A stretch of 64,000 nt of DNA from a bacterium (GCA_030648055.1 JAUSHI010000002.1:178-64177); one strand, 5' to 3'; shown: positions 1 through 57,777, counted from the first letter of the stretch. The notes: generated by a model from the letters alone, not told the origin. Made by a program: numbers and translations.

Positions 1-311
1 ACTACGATATGGGATCGACCTTACTACAAATGGCCAAGGAAGCGAGAAAGATTTATGTAAACCGAAGCAGTATTGAAATGGTCGACGACAAAAAACTGCT
101 TATGTCCCTTTTATTTTCGAACTCGACGATAAATGGCAAGAAAGTTGAGATTTCATACCACAAAGCCTTCAAAATGGTCTCCGACCGAGTAATGCAGATG
201 TTGGGAGAAAAGATAGACGAAAAAAACACTTTCGAACCGCCAAAAGAGCCCGTCAATAAAGGAAAAACACCAGCTTTCGCTGATGTTAATCCTATCTGGC
301 TCCCCGGGTAG
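1..311 (+). CDS. partial CDS (3' end only); tail resembles the C-terminus of large serine recombinases
   Basis: Frame is open from base 3 (..YDMGSTLLQ), so the gene enters from the left edge (track ORF 9..311). KKLLMSLLFSNSTINGKKVEISYHKAF matches my recalled pattern for serine-recombinase tails. No catalytic domain is in the window. The stop lies 15 nt inside the convergent tRNA-Asn. Confidence 0.35.
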   Translation, partial: YDMGSTLLQMAKEARKIYVNRSSIEMVDDKKLLMSLLFSNSTINGKKVEISYHKAFKMVSDRVMQMLGEKIDEKNTFEPPKEPVNKGKTPAFADVNPIWLPG

Positions 312-371
312 GGATCGAACCTACGACCGTCGCCTTAACAGGGCGCCGCTCTACCGCTGAGCTACCGGGGA
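297..371 (-). tRNA. tRNA-Asn (anticodon GUU), CCA encoded
   Basis: The reverse complement folds as a cloverleaf: acceptor TCCCCGG/CCGGGGA, D arm GCTC-AGCGGTA-GAGC, anticodon loop CTGTTAA, T arm GTAGG-TTCGATC-CCTAC, then G-CCA. Length 75 nt. Confidence 0.9.
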
Positions 372-601: not shown

Positions 602-997
602 ATGACAGAAGAAAAACGCCCCGAATTTAAAATTGATGTCGAGCAGGATGGTATTATTCATCTTTTGCTTTCGGGCCATATTAGTTCCGAGAACCTTCAG
701 GGATTGCGCACATGGGCTGAGGATGTTAAGAAAGTTGTTCGCGAAACACACGAAAAAACTGGCCGCAAGGCTCTTGTGGTAACCGATATTAGTAAATTAG
801 AAAATTATCATCCGGAAGCACTGAGTATCCTCGCTCAAATGTTGAAAGATAACGAACCGCATGTTGATAAATCGGCAACTTTTGGCGGAGGGTATTTTAT
901 TACGGTAGCGCAAGATATTGTCACCGCGCTTTCCGGCCGGGAAAATTTTAAAGGATTCAAAACGGAAGAAGAGGCGCTTAATTGGTTAAGGGAATAA
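602..997 (+). CDS. hypothetical protein, possibly STAS/SpoIIAA-like fold
   Basis: 131-aa ORF from the track. The assignment rests only on loose resemblance to STAS-type small alpha/beta proteins. Confidence 0.55.
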   Translation: MTEEKRPEFKIDVEQDGIIHLLLSGHISSENLQGLRTWAEDVKKVVRETHEKTGRKALVVTDISKLENYHPEALSILAQMLKDNEPHVDKSATFGGGYFITVAQDIVTALSGRENFKGFKTEEEALNWLRE

Positions 998-1663: not shown

Positions 1664-1697
1664 TTCATTCCAACGTTCTTAAGAACGTTGGAATGAA
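1664..1697. repeat. palindrome family copy (ttcattccaacGttcttaagaaCgttggaatgaa)
   Basis: Perfect 34-nt palindrome 45 nt after the stop of the 1026..1619 ORF. It is followed by the conserved tail ATTTGGGTTTTTTGCGTTTAAACGCGG (1701-1727), which is also found at 6612-6639. Confidence 0.85.
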
Positions 1698-1806
1698 CTA
1701 ATTTGGGTTTTTTGCGTTTAAACGCGGCTCAATTTTATATTTAATGCAAAAATTTTAGCTGACATTTTGTGGGGCGCAGAGCAAATTGAATCAATTGTTC
1801 CTTATA

Positions 1807-1832
1807 AAAGCCGACATACGTCGGCCTTTTTT
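1807..1832 (+). terminator. intrinsic terminator with no ORF upstream
   Basis: GCCGAC-ATAC-GTCGGC hairpin followed by C-TTTTTT, with an A-tract upstream. Confidence 0.7.
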
Positions 1833-1861
1833 AATTACAGAGTTAAAAGATTGTACCCCAT

Positions 1862-1897
1862 CTTCATTCCAACATTCTTAAGAATGTTGGAATGAAG
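1862..1897. repeat. palindrome family copy (cttcattccaacattcttaagaatgttggaatgaag)
   Basis: Perfect 36-nt palindrome. Confidence 0.85.
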
Positions 1898-1967: not shown

Positions 1968-2237
1968 ATGCAAAAACCACGCCATCTTGAACGAATTGTA
2001 AAGGGATTTTCAAACCATCGTCGCATTGAGATATTGCAACTTCTAAACAAACAGCCAGAGCTTTCGCTTTTTGATATTGCCGACACGCTAGGCATTAACA
2101 CTAAGACAGCACACGAACACATACGCCGTCTTGTGATTGCGGGTCTAGTCATGAAGCGTAGCGACGGCAAGGCGGTACGTCACGCGCTTTCAGAGGTTGG
2201 TAAAACCGTCTTTAAATTTTTGACAACCCTTGATTAA
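1968..2237 (+). CDS. ArsR-family winged-helix transcriptional regulator
   Basis: 89 aa. HRRIEILQLLNKQPELSLFDIADTLGINTKTAHEHIRRLVIAGLVMKR is a typical ArsR/SmtB HTH. Confidence 0.8.
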   Translation: MQKPRHLERIVKGFSNHRRIEILQLLNKQPELSLFDIADTLGINTKTAHEHIRRLVIAGLVMKRSDGKAVRHALSEVGKTVFKFLTTLD

Positions 2238-6576: not shown

Positions 6577-6606
6577 CATTCTCAAATTCTTAAGAATTTG
6601 AGAATG
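6577..6606. repeat. palindrome family copy with different arms (cattctcaaattcttaagaatttgagaatg)
   Basis: Perfect 30-nt palindrome 39 nt after the stop of the giant ORF, followed by the same conserved tail at 6612-6639. Confidence 0.85.
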
Positions 6607-6657
6607 AATTTATTTGGGGTTTCTTGCGTTTAAGCGCGGTGTGATATAACAAAGGTA

Positions 6658-7746
6658 ATGCGGATTATTTTTCATATTGATATGGACGCGTTTTTTGCCT
6701 CCGTTGAGGAGCGGGATAAGCCATGGCTGAAGGGCAAGCCGGTTGTGGTGGGTGCGGATCCGAAGCACGGCAAAGGACGGGGCGTGGTTTCAACCGCGAA
6801 CTACAAAGCGCGGGAATATGGGATTCATTCGGCGCAACCAATATCGGTCGCGTGGAGGTTGTCGGAAAATGCGGTAAGAGAAGGAAAACCGCGGGTGTAT
6901 TTTTTGGGTGGCGATTTTCAGTCATACGGAAAAGCATCCGGCGAGATAATGGCGATATTGCGGAAGCACGGCGATAAAATAGAGCCGGCTTCAATTGATG
7001 AGGCGTATTTGGATGTAACAAGCGCGGAAAGTTTTGAGAAGGCAGAAAAGCTCGCGCAAAAAATTAAAAATGAAATAAAAAAGAAAGAGCGTCTTACCGC
7101 TTCAATCGGCATCGGCCCGAATAAGCTCATTGCCAAGATGGCCTCCGGAATGAATAAGCCCGACGGGCTTACGGTTATTCAGCCCGAAGACGTTCAAAAA
7201 TTTCTTGACTCGCAACCGGTTGAAGCAATTCCTGGTATTGGCCCTAAGAGCGGAAGAATTTTAAAATTTAAGGGCATTAAAACTATTGCCGACCTTCGTA
7301 AGATGGCGCGCGCCGAACTTATCAAAGCATTCGGTAAATGTGGCGAGGGGATGGCGGAGAGCGCGAGAGGGGTTGATGACAGCGCGGTGACCGAAGAGCG
7401 CGAAACGAAATCAATCGGCGAGCAGGAAACATTTGAAAAAGATACGCTCGATCCCGGCATACTAATAAAAGCACTTCAAGGTTTGGCTGAAAGCGTTTTT
7501 AATTCGGTGCAAAAGGGAAAATTAATTTTTAAAACCGTTTCTATTGCGGTGCGCTTTGAAGATTTTGAGACCAAAAGCCGCGCGCATACTCTCAAAAAGG
7601 CGATTAGCGATAACAAAACTTTTGAAGCCGAGGCGCTAAAATTATTTTTACCGTTTTTAGACAGGCGAGAAAACCCAAAAAAGAAATTAATCCGCCTTAT
7701 TGGCGTCAGAGCCGAACACCTTCAGCGCCAAGGCGAACTTTTTTGA
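6658..7746 (+). CDS. dinB: DNA polymerase IV (Y-family)
   Basis: MRIIFHIDMDAFFASVEERD...VSTANYKAREYGIHSAQP and the full-length 362-aa layout are typical of DinB. Confidence 0.9.
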   Translation: MRIIFHIDMDAFFASVEERDKPWLKGKPVVVGADPKHGKGRGVVSTANYKAREYGIHSAQPISVAWRLSENAVREGKPRVYFLGGDFQSYGKASGEIMAILRKHGDKIEPASIDEAYLDVTSAESFEKAEKLAQKIKNEIKKKERLTASIGIGPNKLIAKMASGMNKPDGLTVIQPEDVQKFLDSQPVEAIPGIGPKSGRILKFKGIKTIADLRKMARAELIKAFGKCGEGMAESARGVDDSAVTEERETKSIGEQETFEKDTLDPGILIKALQGLAESVFNSVQKGKLIFKTVSIAVRFEDFETKSRAHTLKKAISDNKTFEAEALKLFLPFLDRRENPKKKLIRLIGVRAEHLQRQGELF

Positions 7747-7753
7747 AAAGTTC

Positions 7754-7781
7754 ATTCCAACATTCTTAAGAATGTTGGAAT
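7754..7781. repeat. palindrome family copy (attccaacattcttaagaatgttggaat)
   Basis: Perfect 28-nt palindrome 8 nt after the dinB stop. Confidence 0.85.
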
Positions 7782-7857
7782 TATGAAGGATTTCTTGAAA
7801 AACAAAAGCCCGCAAGAGGGCGGGCAGGATATAAAAAAGAAAGAATAAGGAAGAAAG

Positions 7858-23145: not shown

Positions 23146-23181
23146 CGTCGCAACATTGACCGATCGGTCAATGTTGCGACG
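23146..23181. repeat. 36-bp perfect palindrome
   Basis: CGTCGCAACATTGACCGA|TCGGTCAATGTTGCGACG lies between the two repeat copies. Confidence 0.85.
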
Positions 23182-46432: not shown

Positions 46433-46516
46433 GTAAAATTGGGGGGGATGCTCATTTTTGTAGCTACTCGCCCCATTTATAAACAAAAATGGCAAAAGAT
46501 TATTACAAAATTTTAG
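46433..46516 (+). promoter_or_regulatory. repeat element C (right half only) with mini-ORF (22 codons) overlapping the dnaJ start
   Basis: GTAAAATTGGGGGGGATGCTCAT. The mini-ORF 46448-46516 (MLIFVATRPIY..) overlaps the dnaJ ATG out of frame. I found no matching left arm. Confidence 0.5.
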
Positions 46517-47571
46517 GTGTCCCGAGGAACGCTTCTAAGGAAGATGTAAAACATGCTTATAGAAAGCTGGCGCATTTACATCACCCCGATAAAGCAGGTG
46601 GCAACGAGGCGAAGTTTAAAGAAATTAACGAGGCCTATCAGGTGCTGGGAGATGAAAAGAAGCGTTCACAGTACGACCAATTCGGGCGGGTGTTTGAGGG
46701 GGGCGGCGGAAGTCCTTTTGGCCAAGGCGGGTTTAGTTTTGGAGAAGAGTTTCGGGGTTTCGGCGATTTTGACTTTTCAGATATTTTTGAAGATGTTTTG
46801 GGCGGGATGGGTTTTGCCGGGGGGAAACGCGAGCCGCATTCAAAAAAAGGAAGAGATATACAAATTGATTTGGAAATTCCTTTTGAAGAAATGATTTTTG
46901 GTGGCAAGCACGAAGTATCGTTGCAGAAACTTGGGAAGTGCGAACGTTGCGGAGGGACAGGGGCAGAGGCCGGCTCAAAGATGGTTACGTGCAATACCTG
47001 CCATGGCTCCGGAAAGGTTGAGAAAATCCAACGGACTATTTTGGGTGTGTTTTCGCAAGTGAGCATTTGTTCAACCTGCAATGGTAAGGGCGAGGTGCCT
47101 GAAGTAACATGCAAAAATTGCGGAGGCAGGGGAGTTCTTCGCGCGGAGGATCGTATTGAAATTTTTGTGCCGGCCGGAGTTAATGGTAATGAGCTTCTGA
47201 AAGTTTCTGGAAAAGGCGAGGCGTCAGTTACTGGAGGCGTGCCGGGCGATCTTTTTGTGAAAATTCACGTGATGTCTTCAAAAATTTATAAAAGGCAGAG
47301 TAACGATGTAATTATGATGCTTTCGGTGAAATTTACCGACGCGGCTTTGGGGGCGAAGGTTGATTTGGGAACTCCTGACGGTAAAATCGTGATGAAAATT
47401 CCTGAAGGCACGGAGTCCGGAGATATTTTAAAAGTTCGCGGCAAGGGCGTTCCGCACCTTTCGGGGTACGGCAGGGGAGATCTTTTGATTGAGATTAAAG
47501 TTGAAACGCCCAAGAAACTTTCGCGCAAAGCAAAAGAGATGATTGAAAAATTAAAAGAAGAAGGAGTTTAA
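46489..47571 (+). CDS. dnaJ: chaperone DnaJ
   Basis: J domain with HPD (LAHLHHPDK), a G/F region, and four CxxCxGxG zinc motifs. Confidence 0.96.
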   Translation: MAKDYYKILGVPRNASKEDVKHAYRKLAHLHHPDKAGGNEAKFKEINEAYQVLGDEKKRSQYDQFGRVFEGGGGSPFGQGGFSFGEEFRGFGDFDFSDIFEDVLGGMGFAGGKREPHSKKGRDIQIDLEIPFEEMIFGGKHEVSLQKLGKCERCGGTGAEAGSKMVTCNTCHGSGKVEKIQRTILGVFSQVSICSTCNGKGEVPEVTCKNCGGRGVLRAEDRIEIFVPAGVNGNELLKVSGKGEASVTGGVPGDLFVKIHVMSSKIYKRQSNDVIMMLSVKFTDAALGAKVDLGTPDGKIVMKIPEGTESGDILKVRGKGVPHLSGYGRGDLLIEIKVETPKKLSRKAKEMIEKLKEEGV

Positions 47572-47650: not shown

Positions 47651-47717
47651 TTCATTCCAACATTCTCTCTCTTTCGCGCGAGGCTTCGGACGGGCAAGGT
47701 AAGAATGTTGGAATGAA
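47651..47717. repeat. palindrome family copy with a 35-nt insertion at its centre
   Basis: The arms TTCATTCCAACATTCT (47651-66) and AGAATGTTGGAATGAA (47702-17) are separated by CTCTCTTTCGCGCGAGGCTTCGGACGGGCAAGGTA. Confidence 0.8.
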
Positions 47718-48093
47718 AAATGGGCGGGGCAGATGGTTGAGGGCGCTGTGCCGGATAACAAGAACACTCCGCAGTATTGCGGAGTGTTTTGAAATTCAGC
47801 ACCTTTCTGTCATTTCTTGTCTTATCGGATTTATTATTTTCGGCGCTTTGCTTTCCCTTTTTTTGCTTTTTTTGCCATTTTGATTTTTAGATTTAAATGA
47901 GCTAATTAATAAATTTATTCGGGAGCTATTTCCCTCGGCCTTTGGCATAAGTATACCATACTTTTATTGCAATTTTATTTTTTGCAACGCAATGTGTGGA
48001 TAACTTAAGGACGTTTGATTTTTTTCAAAAGCAAGTTATAATTGTTTTGCCCTCAGTTTTTGAAATAAAGATAAATTTTTTACGATTTTTTAC

Positions 48094-53441: not shown

Positions 53442-53479
53442 AATACGCTTTAATATGCTATAGCATATTAAAGCGTATT
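53442..53479. repeat. 38-bp perfect palindrome upstream of ddl
   Basis: AATACGCTTTAATATGCTA|TAGCATATTAAAGCGTATT, ending 20 nt before the ddl ATG. Confidence 0.85.
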
Positions 53480-53499
53480 GTTTGCAACAATCTTCAAAT

Positions 53500-55929: not shown

Positions 55930-56304
55930 TCTGTCGCAAAAGGGGATCATGCACCCCCGGCGCTCAAAGACCAAACGGTCAATGAGCGTCATTTTTATTT
56001 ATTCGTCTAAATTTTTATAGAGTATCAAATATTCTTGTTGGTCTAATTCGCGCGAATAGTGGAATAAGACCGGATGTAAATAAAATTTAGCAACAAATAA
56101 ATAGCCCAGCCCTCTATGCTCTCAGAAATACCGCTAGTTTCTAAAAGCGCGTAAATATTTTTGCTATGTAATATTATATTGCAAACTGCTTAGAGGGCTG
56201 GGTGAACAACCGCGTATACCGCAAGCTTGTGTGATATCGCATCGCTTGCGGTGCAGTTGTTCATTGTTTCAAAAGATGTTATTTTTGTTAGGTACTCGCA
56301 ATTT

Positions 56305-57738
56305 ATGGAACGCGTTTTAATAAAAGAAACATTGGCAAAGATCGGGGAAAAAGTCCGCTTGGCGGGCTGGGTTTCGGTCAGGCGCAATCACGGAAAAATT
56401 ATTTTTATTGACCTCCGCGATCGCTCGGGGGTTTTTCAGGTTGTTTTTACGCCTAAAAATGCGGAAGTGTACGCAATTGCCGAGACGCTTCGTCCGGAAT
56501 GGGTGATTGCCGTTGAAGGAATAGTTCAAAAGAGGCCGAGCGGCATGGAAAACGCCGAACTTGAAACCGGTCAGATTGAACTTCCTGCCGAAAGTATTGA
56601 AATATTGAACAAGGCCGAAACAGTGCCTTTTGATATTCACGGCGACGGAAAAGAAATTGAAGAGGAGGTCCGCCTTAAATATCGCTATATTGACCTTCGG
56701 AGGCCGCGGTTGCAAAAGAATATGCGGAATCGCGCCAAGGCTATTAAGTTTATACGCGATTATCTTTCGCCGTTGGATTTTGTTGAAATTGAAACGCCGG
56801 TTTTATCCAAGTCCACTCCTGAAGGCGCGCGCGATTACCTTGTGCCTTCACGGGTTCACTTGGGAAAATTTTACGCTCTTCCGCAATCTCCCCAACAATA
56901 TAAACAGCTTCTAATGGTGTCTTGTTTTGAGCGGTATTTTCAGATCGCGCGTTGTTTCCGGGACGAAGATACGCGTGGAGACAGACAGCCGGAGTTTACA
57001 CAACTTGATCTGGAAATGAGTTTTGTTAAGAGGGAAGACGTGATGGACTTGATTGAAGACATGTTCATTAAGCTTGTCGGTTCACTTTATCCGGAAAAGC
57101 GCATTCAAAAAATTCCTTTCCCCCGCATTTCACACAAAGAAGCAATGGAAAAATACGGTACAGATCGGCCAGACTTGAGGGAGGATAAAAATGACCCAAA
57201 TCTTCTTGCCTTCGGGTGGGTGATTGATTTTCCGTTTTTTGAAAAAGTTGAAGATGAGCGAAGTCTAAAGCTATCTGACGATGGCTCGGCTAAATGGACA
57301 TTTACCCACAATCCTTTCTCGGCTCCCAAGCCGGAGCATATGGAGTGGCTTATAGAGAAAAAGAATATCGGTGAAATTCTTACTACGCAATATGATATCG
57401 TGCTTAACGGCTATGAAGTAGGCGGGGGAAGCATTCGTAATCATCAGCCGGAGGCGCTTAAAAAAGTTTTTGAGATTATGGGTTTTTCCGAAGAGCGGAT
57501 TATGGCCAATTTCGGGCATATGATCCAGGCGCTTGCTTTCGGGGCTCCGCCCCACGGCGGAATTGCTCCGGGAATTGATCGGCTTATTATGATATTGGAA
57601 AACGAGCCGAATATCCGCGAGGTAATCGCGTTTCCGAAAACCGGAGACGCCAGGGATCCGATGATGGACGGGCCATCGGAAGTTTCTAAGGAACAGCTGA
57701 AGGAACTCGGCATTAAGTTTGAAAAGGAGAAAAAGTAA
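56305..57738 (+). CDS. aspS: aspartate--tRNA ligase (bacterial-type core, lacks the GAD insertion)
   Basis: GWVSVRRNHGKIIFIDLRDRSG, QSPQQYKQLLM, FRDEDTRGDRQPEFTQLD, GGIAPGIDRL. RPDLR is followed almost directly by WVIDFPFFE. Confidence 0.93.
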   Translation: MERVLIKETLAKIGEKVRLAGWVSVRRNHGKIIFIDLRDRSGVFQVVFTPKNAEVYAIAETLRPEWVIAVEGIVQKRPSGMENAELETGQIELPAESIEILNKAETVPFDIHGDGKEIEEEVRLKYRYIDLRRPRLQKNMRNRAKAIKFIRDYLSPLDFVEIETPVLSKSTPEGARDYLVPSRVHLGKFYALPQSPQQYKQLLMVSCFERYFQIARCFRDEDTRGDRQPEFTQLDLEMSFVKREDVMDLIEDMFIKLVGSLYPEKRIQKIPFPRISHKEAMEKYGTDRPDLREDKNDPNLLAFGWVIDFPFFEKVEDERSLKLSDDGSAKWTFTHNPFSAPKPEHMEWLIEKKNIGEILTTQYDIVLNGYEVGGGSIRNHQPEALKKVFEIMGFSEERIMANFGHMIQALAFGAPPHGGIAPGIDRLIMILENEPNIREVIAFPKTGDARDPMMDGPSEVSKEQLKELGIKFEKEKK

Positions 57739-57745
57739 AACTCGC

Positions 57746-57777
57746 ACATTCTCACATTCTTGAGAATGTGAGAATGT
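57746..57777. repeat. palindrome family copy (acattctcacattcttGagaatgtgagaatgt)
   Basis: 32-nt palindrome 8 nt after the aspS stop. Confidence 0.85.

Follow-up and report, generated by a model that had tools for sequence, protein, structure and literature searches.

A conserved 28-bp palindrome of Patescibacteria as the candidate operator of a small winged helix-turn-helix protein

The stretch of bacterial DNA analyzed here (64,000 nt, positions 178-64177 of contig JAUSHI010000002.1, assembly GCA_030648055.1; hereafter the window) contains eight copies of a long palindrome, two of which flank a gene for an 89-amino-acid winged helix-turn-helix (wHTH) protein (1968-2237). Judging from sequence comparisons, the palindromes are probably operators of this protein, which would be an autoregulated repressor with a cognate 28-bp inverted repeat of the 13-2-13 type. 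A preliminary description of this DNA had offered four options for the palindromes, namely repetitive extragenic palindromic (REP)-like elements, terminators independent of a U-tract, sites of RNA processing or stability, and operators for a dimeric protein; the last of these is supported by the present analysis, with the wHTH protein as the candidate.

The ancestral conserved unit would consist of an operator, the regulator gene and a second operator. The upstream copy overlaps the promoter, either at the -35 element or between the -10 element and the start codon, and the bound protein would stop its own transcription. The 3' copy, which is normally located inside the codons of the C-terminal helix (ILKFLRTLE-stop), is probably an auxiliary operator that might serve as a roadblock or form a loop with the upstream site at a distance of ~280-340 bp. 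The genome represented by the window deviates from this arrangement: the embedded copy has decayed, a fresh perfect copy is found 9 nt past the stop codon and six more copies have spread. Patescibacteria possess very few transcription factors and their regulation is almost unknown, and the module described here offers a concrete candidate protein-DNA pair, in which mysterious hairpins might become an annotatable regulatory module.

Conservation of the motif and its linkage to the regulator gene

Alignment of the copies yields a core that is a 13-2-13 inverted repeat of 28 bp, ATTC-YN-A-HR-TTCT-YR-AGAA-YD-T-NR-GAAT. A scan of species-representative genomes with the degenerate pattern ATTCNNANNTTCTTRAGAANNTNNGAAT, in which only the boxes are fixed, gave more than 120 loci among the matches listed, compared to ~4 chance matches estimated from the information content. 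Nearly all these loci belong to Patescibacteria, also known as the candidate phyla radiation (CPR), and many classes are represented, including Saccharibacteria, Paceibacterota, Doudna-, Zambryski-, Nealson-, Wolfe-, Giovannoni-, Adler- and Uhrbacteria. About 19 of the 28 core positions are kept across many classes of Patescibacteria and also in Planctomycetota contigs with 64-67% GC. The predicted site is a 28-bp repeat that is kept across the patescibacterial radiation and is present in some contigs of Planctomycetota. No match to the motif was detected among 2.9 million viral contigs, and a full-text literature search for the motif strings and for palindromes or ArsR proteins of Patescibacteria, CPR or Saccharibacteria found no description of the motif or of the protein family.

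In several aligned loci, the 2-nt centre is GC (for example, ACATTCCAACATTCTGCAGAATGTTGGAAT), giving CTGCAG next to CTTAAG, CTTGAG and CTCAAG. Because the scan pattern excluded the GC centre, the family is larger than counted. The module is found also in contigs of metagenome-assembled genomes labelled Planctomycetota, with 64-67% G+C (L027, positions 1221-1714; L074, positions 45-376; and L025/L026), which indicates that it is not restricted to Patescibacteria. In these contigs, A+T-richness is confined to the upstream and embedded sites, in contrast to the G+C-rich body of the gene. In L027, the gene body has ameliorated to 62% G+C, and the embedded site, with its A+T-rich consensus, has 32%.

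The palindromes and the wHTH gene are linked almost obligately, on both sides of the gene. Starting from the palindromes, a wHTH homologue was detected at the site with tblastn in 29 of the 120 loci selected, and any other gene of the window was common to at most 7 of them; in many pattern-matched loci, two copies are located ~290-340 nt apart. Starting from the protein, we retrieved 80 metagenome loci with two of its peptides, VKGFSNHRR and KTASEHIRR, taken from the N-terminal and middle parts; this sample is unbiased for the DNA motif. An upstream copy within 250 nt is present in 77 of 79 of these loci, and a 3'-end copy in 75 of 77, where it usually stops exactly 2 nt short of the last nucleotide of the stop codon. 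All three loci identified via exact homologue look-up have the same organization, with one copy 8-66 nt before the start codon and one over the last 30 nt of the open reading frame (ORF).

The 3' copy is kept in 105 of the 111 family genes with sufficient flanking sequence, in at least five registers relative to the reading frame:

Register -2, 95 genes: the site encodes ILKFLRTLE-stop
Register +12, 4 genes: stop codon at the centre of the palindrome (...FQHS-stop)
Register +21, 4 genes: ...KTF-stop
Register +31, 1 gene
Register +39, 1 gene: the window, where the site (copy 4 in the list below) follows the gene

The 3' site is kept while its relation to the frame shifts, which implies that a DNA (or RNA) element is conserved and not merely a peptide. 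The gene in the window still contains a decayed relic of the embedded site:

2208-2235, plus strand: relic of the embedded 3' site, GTCTTTAAATTTTTGACAACCCTTGATT, with 7 mismatches to the 18 fixed positions, encoding VFKFLTTLD in place of the ILKFLRTLE of the family

A search between copies 2 and 3 of the window for the remains of another regulator gene found none; the ...FLRMLE* frame in this interval is only what any copy of the palindrome encodes. In one related locus (L121, 8612-11157), the wHTH gene and its two sites lie between an ORF with DUF4131 and Competence domains and an ORF with a Lactamase_B domain. These flanking ORFs resemble a split ComEC, which hints at insertion of a cassette in this locus.

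Codon usage in the embedded site

The choice of synonymous codons in the last nine codons of 74 distinct wHTH genes was compared with the bodies of the genes:

Phe: TTC in 73/73; gene body, 27%
Arg: AGA in 72/72; gene body, 25%
Leu82: CTN in 73/73; gene body, 57%
Leu85: TTR in 72/73; gene body, 43%
Ile: ATT in 58/58; gene body, 54%
Glu: GAA in 69/73; gene body, 62%

This freezing of synonymous codons is proof of constraint at the nucleic acid level inside the ORF. A candidate operator within the last nine codons of the factor's own gene is an unusual arrangement and a clean natural case of dual coding, which offers an explanation for a binding site that remains unchanged over very deep divergence.

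Promoter geometry

Hexamers resembling the -10 element (at least 5 of 6 matches to TATAAT) peak 11-18 nt past the core of the upstream copies, with the maximum at 16-17 nt, and are found there in 42 of 103 upstream copies. A -10 element phased in this manner places the outer arm of the palindrome (TTGGAAT or TTAGAAT) at the position of the -35 element. In a second group of upstream copies, the -10 element is just upstream and the site lies between it and the ATG. There is no -10 peak on the far side of the upstream copies, nor at 158 dispersed copies. The window belongs to the first type, with TTGGAA in the right arm of copy 3 (1887-1892), a 16-nt spacer and the extended -10 element TGtTAAAAT (1906-1914); copy 3 and this promoter show the classical geometry of an autorepressor.

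In the loci L125-L204, a consensus TATAAT is often found just ~6-8 nt before the ATG of the wHTH gene, which suggests leaderless mRNAs. Several of the start positions that tblastn gives for the wHTH genes are clearly downstream of the true ATG.

The palindrome copies in the window

The preliminary description had claimed at least eight copies, and on reading the 64-kb window all eight are indeed present, far beyond chance. In seven of them, the palindrome is perfect, with a length of 28-38 nt and 0-2 nt at the centre. The copies and the regulator gene are as follows:

497-534: copy 1, arms of 18 nt, centre of 2 nt, core 502-529 (ACTCTGATGTTCT-TG-AGAACATCAGAGT); in the divergent region between the gene for tRNA-Asn (297-371, minus strand) and a STAS/SpoIIAA-like gene (602-997, plus strand)
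1663-1698: copy 2, 18+18 nt, core 1667-1694, CCAACG arms; 44 nt past the stop codon of a DUF1003 gene (1026-1619)
1861-1898: copy 3, 19+19 nt, core 1866-1893; upstream candidate operator of the wHTH gene, on the promoter of the regulator
1968-2237, plus strand: wHTH regulator gene, 89 aa, ArsR/SmtB fold, between copies 3 and 4
2247-2278: copy 4, 16+16 nt, core 2249-2276; 9 nt past the stop codon of the wHTH gene
6577-6606: copy 5, 15+15 nt, core 6578-6605, TCTCAAA arms; 38 nt after the stop codon of a gene for a 1193-aa beta-helix protein and 51 nt before dinB (6658-7746)
7751-7784: copy 6, perfect part 7754-7781 (14+14 nt), outer TTC/GAA interrupted by a 2-nt insertion; 7 nt after the dinB stop codon, in a convergent region in which the minus-strand neighbour has a canonical terminator of its own (7808-7825)
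47651-47717: copy 7, perfect 16-nt arms TTCATTCCAACATTCT and AGAATGTTGGAATGAA with a 35-nt insert between them; 79 nt after the stop codon of dnaJ (46489-47571), downstream of the gene
57746-57777: copy 8, arms of 15 nt, centre of 2 nt (TG), core 57748-57775, TCTCACA arms; 7 nt after the stop codon of lysS (56227-57738) and 67 nt before scpA (57845)

The string TTCTTAAGAA occurs five times in the window, compared to 0.14 occurrences expected, and none of 100 shuffles reached five; in the remaining three copies, the centre is TTGA or the insert is present. When up to 3 mismatches are allowed, the 17-nt arm has 11 matches, with 0.54 expected. Exact half-sites are never solitary in the window, each being paired with an inverted partner. 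Although there are five types of arms, every one of the eight copies is symmetric at the variable positions (p ~5e-5 under random pairing of the 16 arms). The description of most copies as lying 8-45 nt past a plus-strand stop codon is accurate in part: five copies are 8-83 nt past a stop codon and the copy at 2247 is 9 nt past that of the regulator; the copy at 497, however, is in a divergent region, where a pair resembling -35 and -10 elements for the minus-strand tRNA promoter is 9 nt from the palindrome, and the copy at 1861 is on the promoter of the regulator.

The window is chromosomal, with housekeeping genes (DnaJ, LysRS, ScpA, DinB) and 45% G+C. A scan of the window against Rfam at gathering scores detected three tRNAs and no RNA family at the palindromes. 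Two more long perfect palindromes with unrelated sequences are present at 23146-23181 (CGTCGCAACATTGACCGATCGGTCAATGTTGCGACG) and 53442-53479 (AATACGCTTTAATATGCTATAGCATATTAAAGCGTATT); the latter stops 2 nt short of an ORF start at 53482. These two may be candidate operators of other factors.

The wHTH protein family

The wHTH protein matches Pfam HTH families of the ArsR/MarR type, HTH_5 (31.5 bits, cut-off 22) and HTH_24; against NCBIfam, it is below all curated cut-offs, including that of the ArsR/SmtB metalloregulator family NF033788 (42.9, cut-off 55). The AlphaFold2 (AF2) model, which is confident, with a predicted local distance difference test (pLDDT) score of 83, has the topology alpha1-alpha2-alpha3-alphaR-beta1-beta2-alpha5 (helices 4-13, 17-28, 34-41 and 45-57, strands 61-66 and 69-74, helix 76-88). 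The best PDB matches in Foldseek are YgaV, CadC, ArsR, HlyU, SmtB, CzrA and NolR, with template modelling (TM) scores of 0.73-0.82, and a phmmer search of the PDB agrees with these matches. The alignment of 24 sequences of the family contains no conserved Cys, and alpha5 (ILKFLRTLE) lacks the His/Asp cluster of metal ligands; the conserved His residues are H17, H51 and H72. According to the model and the sequence features, the protein is predicted to have the ArsR/SmtB fold and not to be a canonical metal sensor. Members of the ArsR/SmtB family bind 12-2-12 inverted repeats at their own promoters.

The family is unnamed and has at least 273 homologues with 60-78% identity, hundreds of 89-aa regulators that are annotated merely as wHTH, ArsR or MarR; a metagenome scan with wHTH peptide patterns gave more than 544 matches. 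The gene is present in a single copy in the window, and no exact match to its product is on record on public contigs. A tblastn search of plasmids and phages gave only distant metalloregulators (~35% identity) or nothing, and PADLOC reported only generic HTH similarity to Csa3/CARF regulators.

Symmetry of the arms

The preliminary description had noted symmetric compensatory variation of the arms, and this variation is real in the non-coding copies, 162 of 261 of which (~62%) have arms identical at all four variable positions, compared to ~10% expected for independent arms. Covariation among relatives, which had been proposed as a check, is evident as well: in 126 non-coding copies, 86.4% of the cells pair compared to 74.5% in shuffles, and the covariation score is 0.370 compared to 0.168, a value that none of the 500 shuffles reached. 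Symmetric upstream copies account for 6 of 11 in divergent contexts, which are few, and for 51 of 82 in tandem contexts. The orientation of the asymmetric centre, as TG or as CA, is not biased with respect to transcription (18 vs 21).

The further claim that the target of selection is the hairpin or dyad, not the sequence, does not hold, given the ~19 conserved positions of 28 and the asymmetry of the embedded copies at the variable positions (84 of 90). The latter results from the codons, by which the left arm is held at TC-A-AR and the right one at YA-A-TG. Since the embedded copies are the best conserved ones and are asymmetric, the core constraint is on the sequence rather than on pairing. 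The protein would read the ATTC and TTCT boxes, and symmetry would not be needed for recognition. The simplest explanation for most of the symmetry of the non-coding copies would be arm-to-arm homogenization by hairpin-templated template switching or repair, which coding constraint would block in the embedded copy. Quasi-palindromes are known to mutate by this mechanism. A hairpin or cruciform may additionally be selected for and contribute to the symmetry.

Dispersed copies, tails and inserts

In 22 of the 33 loci of at least 10 kb, there is no copy besides the two that flank the gene. The density near the gene in other genomes is 0.035 per kb, and the copies are concentrated within 1.7 kb on either side of the wHTH gene. 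The set in the window is expanded by six extra copies (0.094 per kb), mostly just past stop codons; four of the six are no more than 6 kb from the wHTH gene. The order lysS-site-scpA is kept in a related locus (L062), where the arms are CCAACA, different yet symmetric.

The association of the dispersed copies with U-tracts is weak and contradictory, and is not convincing. A T-tract is present on at least one side of 67 of 157 sites, compared to ~24% expected; in tandem contexts, 16 of 60 sites have a sense-strand T-tract after the stem and 24 of 60 an A-tract before it, with a background of 13%. None of the plus-strand copies in the window is followed by an uninterrupted T-run. The earlier statement that few copies have a U-tract is borne out. 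The stems fold at -16 to -25 kcal/mol, with z-scores of -5 to -8; they are A+T-rich, with 4-6 G-C pairs in 13-17, and differ from the G+C-rich stem of an intrinsic terminator. A canonical G+C hairpin with a T-run (GCCGAC-ATAC-GTCGGC and T6, 1810-1832) lies ~110 nt beyond copy 2, and a further G+C-rich hairpin (47763-47788) follows copy 7; the latter was not called on the plus strand by the terminator scan.

Copies 2 and 5, and no others, share a tail of ~27-33 nt with a small palindrome, TTGCGTTTAARCGCGG:

1699-1727, plus strand: tail after copy 2, ATTTGGGTTTTTTGCGTTTAAACGCGG, containing the small palindrome GCGTTTAAACGC
6607-6639, plus strand: tail after copy 5, AATTTATTTGGGGTTTCTTGCGTTTAAGCGCGG

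This confirms the shared 27-nt tail reported for the copies at 1664 and 6577. The tail was found in none of 204 related loci, which points to a local duplication and not to a part of the conserved motif; at least some copies therefore spread by local copy-and-paste. Nevertheless, these two copies have different arms on either side, with none of the four variable positions in common, an argument for concerted change of the arms. The composite terminator-promoter module that the tail had suggested finds no support, the tail being confined to two copies in one genome and not called by the promoter scan.

Some observations concern the vicinity of individual copies. Copy 2 is followed by ~130 nt without an ORF (1699-1832) that end in the canonical terminator and may represent a small transcript. 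In the stretch 6607-6652, the tail of copy 5 is followed by TGaTATAAC directly before the ATG of dinB, a position that suggests a leaderless arrangement. The split-arm variant with an insert of 33-35 nt is found at 47651-47717 in the window, at 4139-4199 in L066 (identical to 9358-9418 in L165) and at 2468-2526 in L165, in each case shortly after a gene. Inserts from distant genomes are homologous to one another (TCCTCCTTCGCT..AAGCTACGGAYGGACA.GT, compared to CTCTCTTTCGCGCGAGGCTTCGGACGGGCAAGGTA in the window). The split-arm variants form stable folds (-29 to -31 kcal/mol), but the inner pairing is not conserved; the variant might represent a small structured element, of RNA or of DNA, or the footprint of something that targets the centre of the palindrome. 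The dispersed copies themselves could be protein roadblocks or insulators, hairpins at RNA 3' ends, decoys or the result of neutral spread.

Alternative explanations

Several observations weigh against autoregulation by the wHTH protein as an account of all the palindromes. The link between the protein and the palindromes is one of genomic association only. The dispersed copies lack the phased -10 element (158 copies analyzed) and favour convergent regions (37 sites in 124 regions) over tandem (60 in 467) and divergent ones (12 in 122); they face 3' ends of genes 115 times and 5' ends 65 times, by crude gene calls, the genes in the related loci having been called as the longest ORFs. Among the 65 genes whose 5' ends face a dispersed copy, no family occurs more than twice and there is no common function. 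Furthermore, 109 of 183 non-coding copies are symmetric, compared to ~18 for independent half-sites, and the symmetry runs 3-5 nt past the conserved core; a homodimer needs neither the symmetry of the arms nor its extension.

There is a small but real chance that the wHTH protein and the palindromes constitute a sequence-specific, protein-dependent insulator or terminator system of reduced genomes, in which the protein, bound at 3' ends and in convergent regions, would stop read-through and would bracket its own gene. Its logic would resemble that of mTERF or of roadblock termination. If true, this would explain the 3'-end bias, the absence of a regulon theme and the conservation across the superphylum, with an operator that is evolutionarily frozen because it is written into the C-terminal codons of the factor itself. 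The copies with a 3'-end bias could then reveal how minimal genomes delimit their transcription units. It is unlikely that the palindromes are mainly RNA hairpins, that is, U-tract-independent terminators or elements of 3'-end stability or processing that the wHTH gene merely uses. The strength of the stems, the preference of the dispersed copies for convergent regions and gene 3' ends, the clear covariation of pairs, the symmetric extension of the arms, the subset of sites elsewhere that are flanked by A-tracts and T-tracts in the manner of bidirectional terminators, and the T-tract in 67 of 157 sites are all compatible with such a role. In a purely structural element, however, 19 of 28 positions would not be conserved between phyla, and the embedded, most conserved copies pair poorly at 2-4 variable positions. 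The centre has no strand bias, and the sense-strand U-tract is no more common than the upstream A-tract. The upstream copies overlap the -35 element and hence are outside the transcript of the regulator, many genomes have only two copies in 20 kb, both flanking the wHTH gene, and copies 2 and 7 are followed by separate G+C hairpins.

It appears improbable that the copies are selfish or neutral dispersed repeats in permissive intergenic DNA, akin to REP elements and bacterial interspersed mosaic elements (BIME), palindrome-associated transposable elements (PATE) or miniature inverted-repeat transposable elements (MITE). Like REPs, the copies accumulate at 3' ends and in convergent regions; their number varies between the window and other genomes, with no extras in most loci; they cluster near the source gene; and the common tail of copies 2 and 5 reflects copy-and-paste of a block of ~60 nt. 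REP and MITE families are specific to a species or genus, whereas the motif is conserved across a superphylum. No flanking direct repeats are apparent on reading the flanks, and there is no internal region and there are no solitary arms; no copies were found on the viral contigs or on plasmids, and the gene-flanking sites are kept in ~95% of the genomes, at fixed positions and under purifying selection at the codon level. The extra copies may nevertheless be mobile. Very improbable is the possibility that the motif is the site of another conserved factor, such as LexA or a nucleoid or segregation protein, with the wHTH gene as one target among others. Copy 5 lies 51 nt upstream of dinB, arms of the GTTC type give GTTC-N4-GAAC, superficially similar to the SOS boxes GAAC-N4-GTTC, and centromere binders of the AspA type have the same fold. 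The order of the half-sites, however, is the inverse of that in the Gram-positive SOS box, the neighbouring genes show no SOS or other functional theme, the wHTH gene alone is consistently linked to the motif, and the presence of just two gene-flanking copies in many genomes is the signature of an autoregulator's own operators. Interpretations of the palindromes as restriction sites (CTYRAG), uptake sequences, CIRCE (controlling inverted repeat of chaperone expression) elements or SOS boxes were dropped on the grounds of sequence, density and exclusive linkage to the wHTH gene.

Comparison with known systems

The putative autorepressor resembles those of the ArsR/SmtB family (SmtB, CzrA and CadC, and the non-metal regulators HlyU, NolR and YgaV) in its fold and size class and in the predicted binding, at its own promoter, to an inverted repeat of ~28 bp with a 2-bp centre and TTC/GAA-rich half-sites. 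It differs from these in that the family scores below the curated NCBIfam cut-offs and has no canonical metal site, that a second site is present at the 3' end of the ORF, usually within the last nine codons, and that site and protein are found across the superphylum, with extra copies at gene 3' ends.

Auxiliary operators with DNA looping, such as lac O2 (in lacZ) and gal OI (in galE), are likewise second operator copies in a coding sequence, some hundreds of bp from the promoter-proximal operator. Unlike these, the candidate operator described here belongs to the gene of the regulator itself, whose C-terminal peptide it dictates, and the looping is a prediction. Similarly to CIRCE and HrcA, a long inverted repeat is conserved across many phyla; CIRCE has been reported as both a DNA operator and an mRNA element. 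The palindromes differ from CIRCE (TTAGCACTC-N9-GAGTGCTAA, with a 9-nt spacer) in sequence, spacing and protein family, and whereas CIRCE has a heat-shock regulon and is located upstream of chaperone operons, the palindromes show no regulon theme and the dnaJ copy is downstream of the gene. Finally, the palindromes share with REP/BIME elements and with inverted pairs of DNA uptake sequences (DUS) or uptake signal sequences (USS) the dispersed distribution, the preference for 3' ends and convergent regions and the stable hairpins. Those elements are restricted to single species, with copy numbers in the hundreds to thousands, whereas the palindromes, in numbers from a few to tens, extend across phyla and are tied to one regulator.

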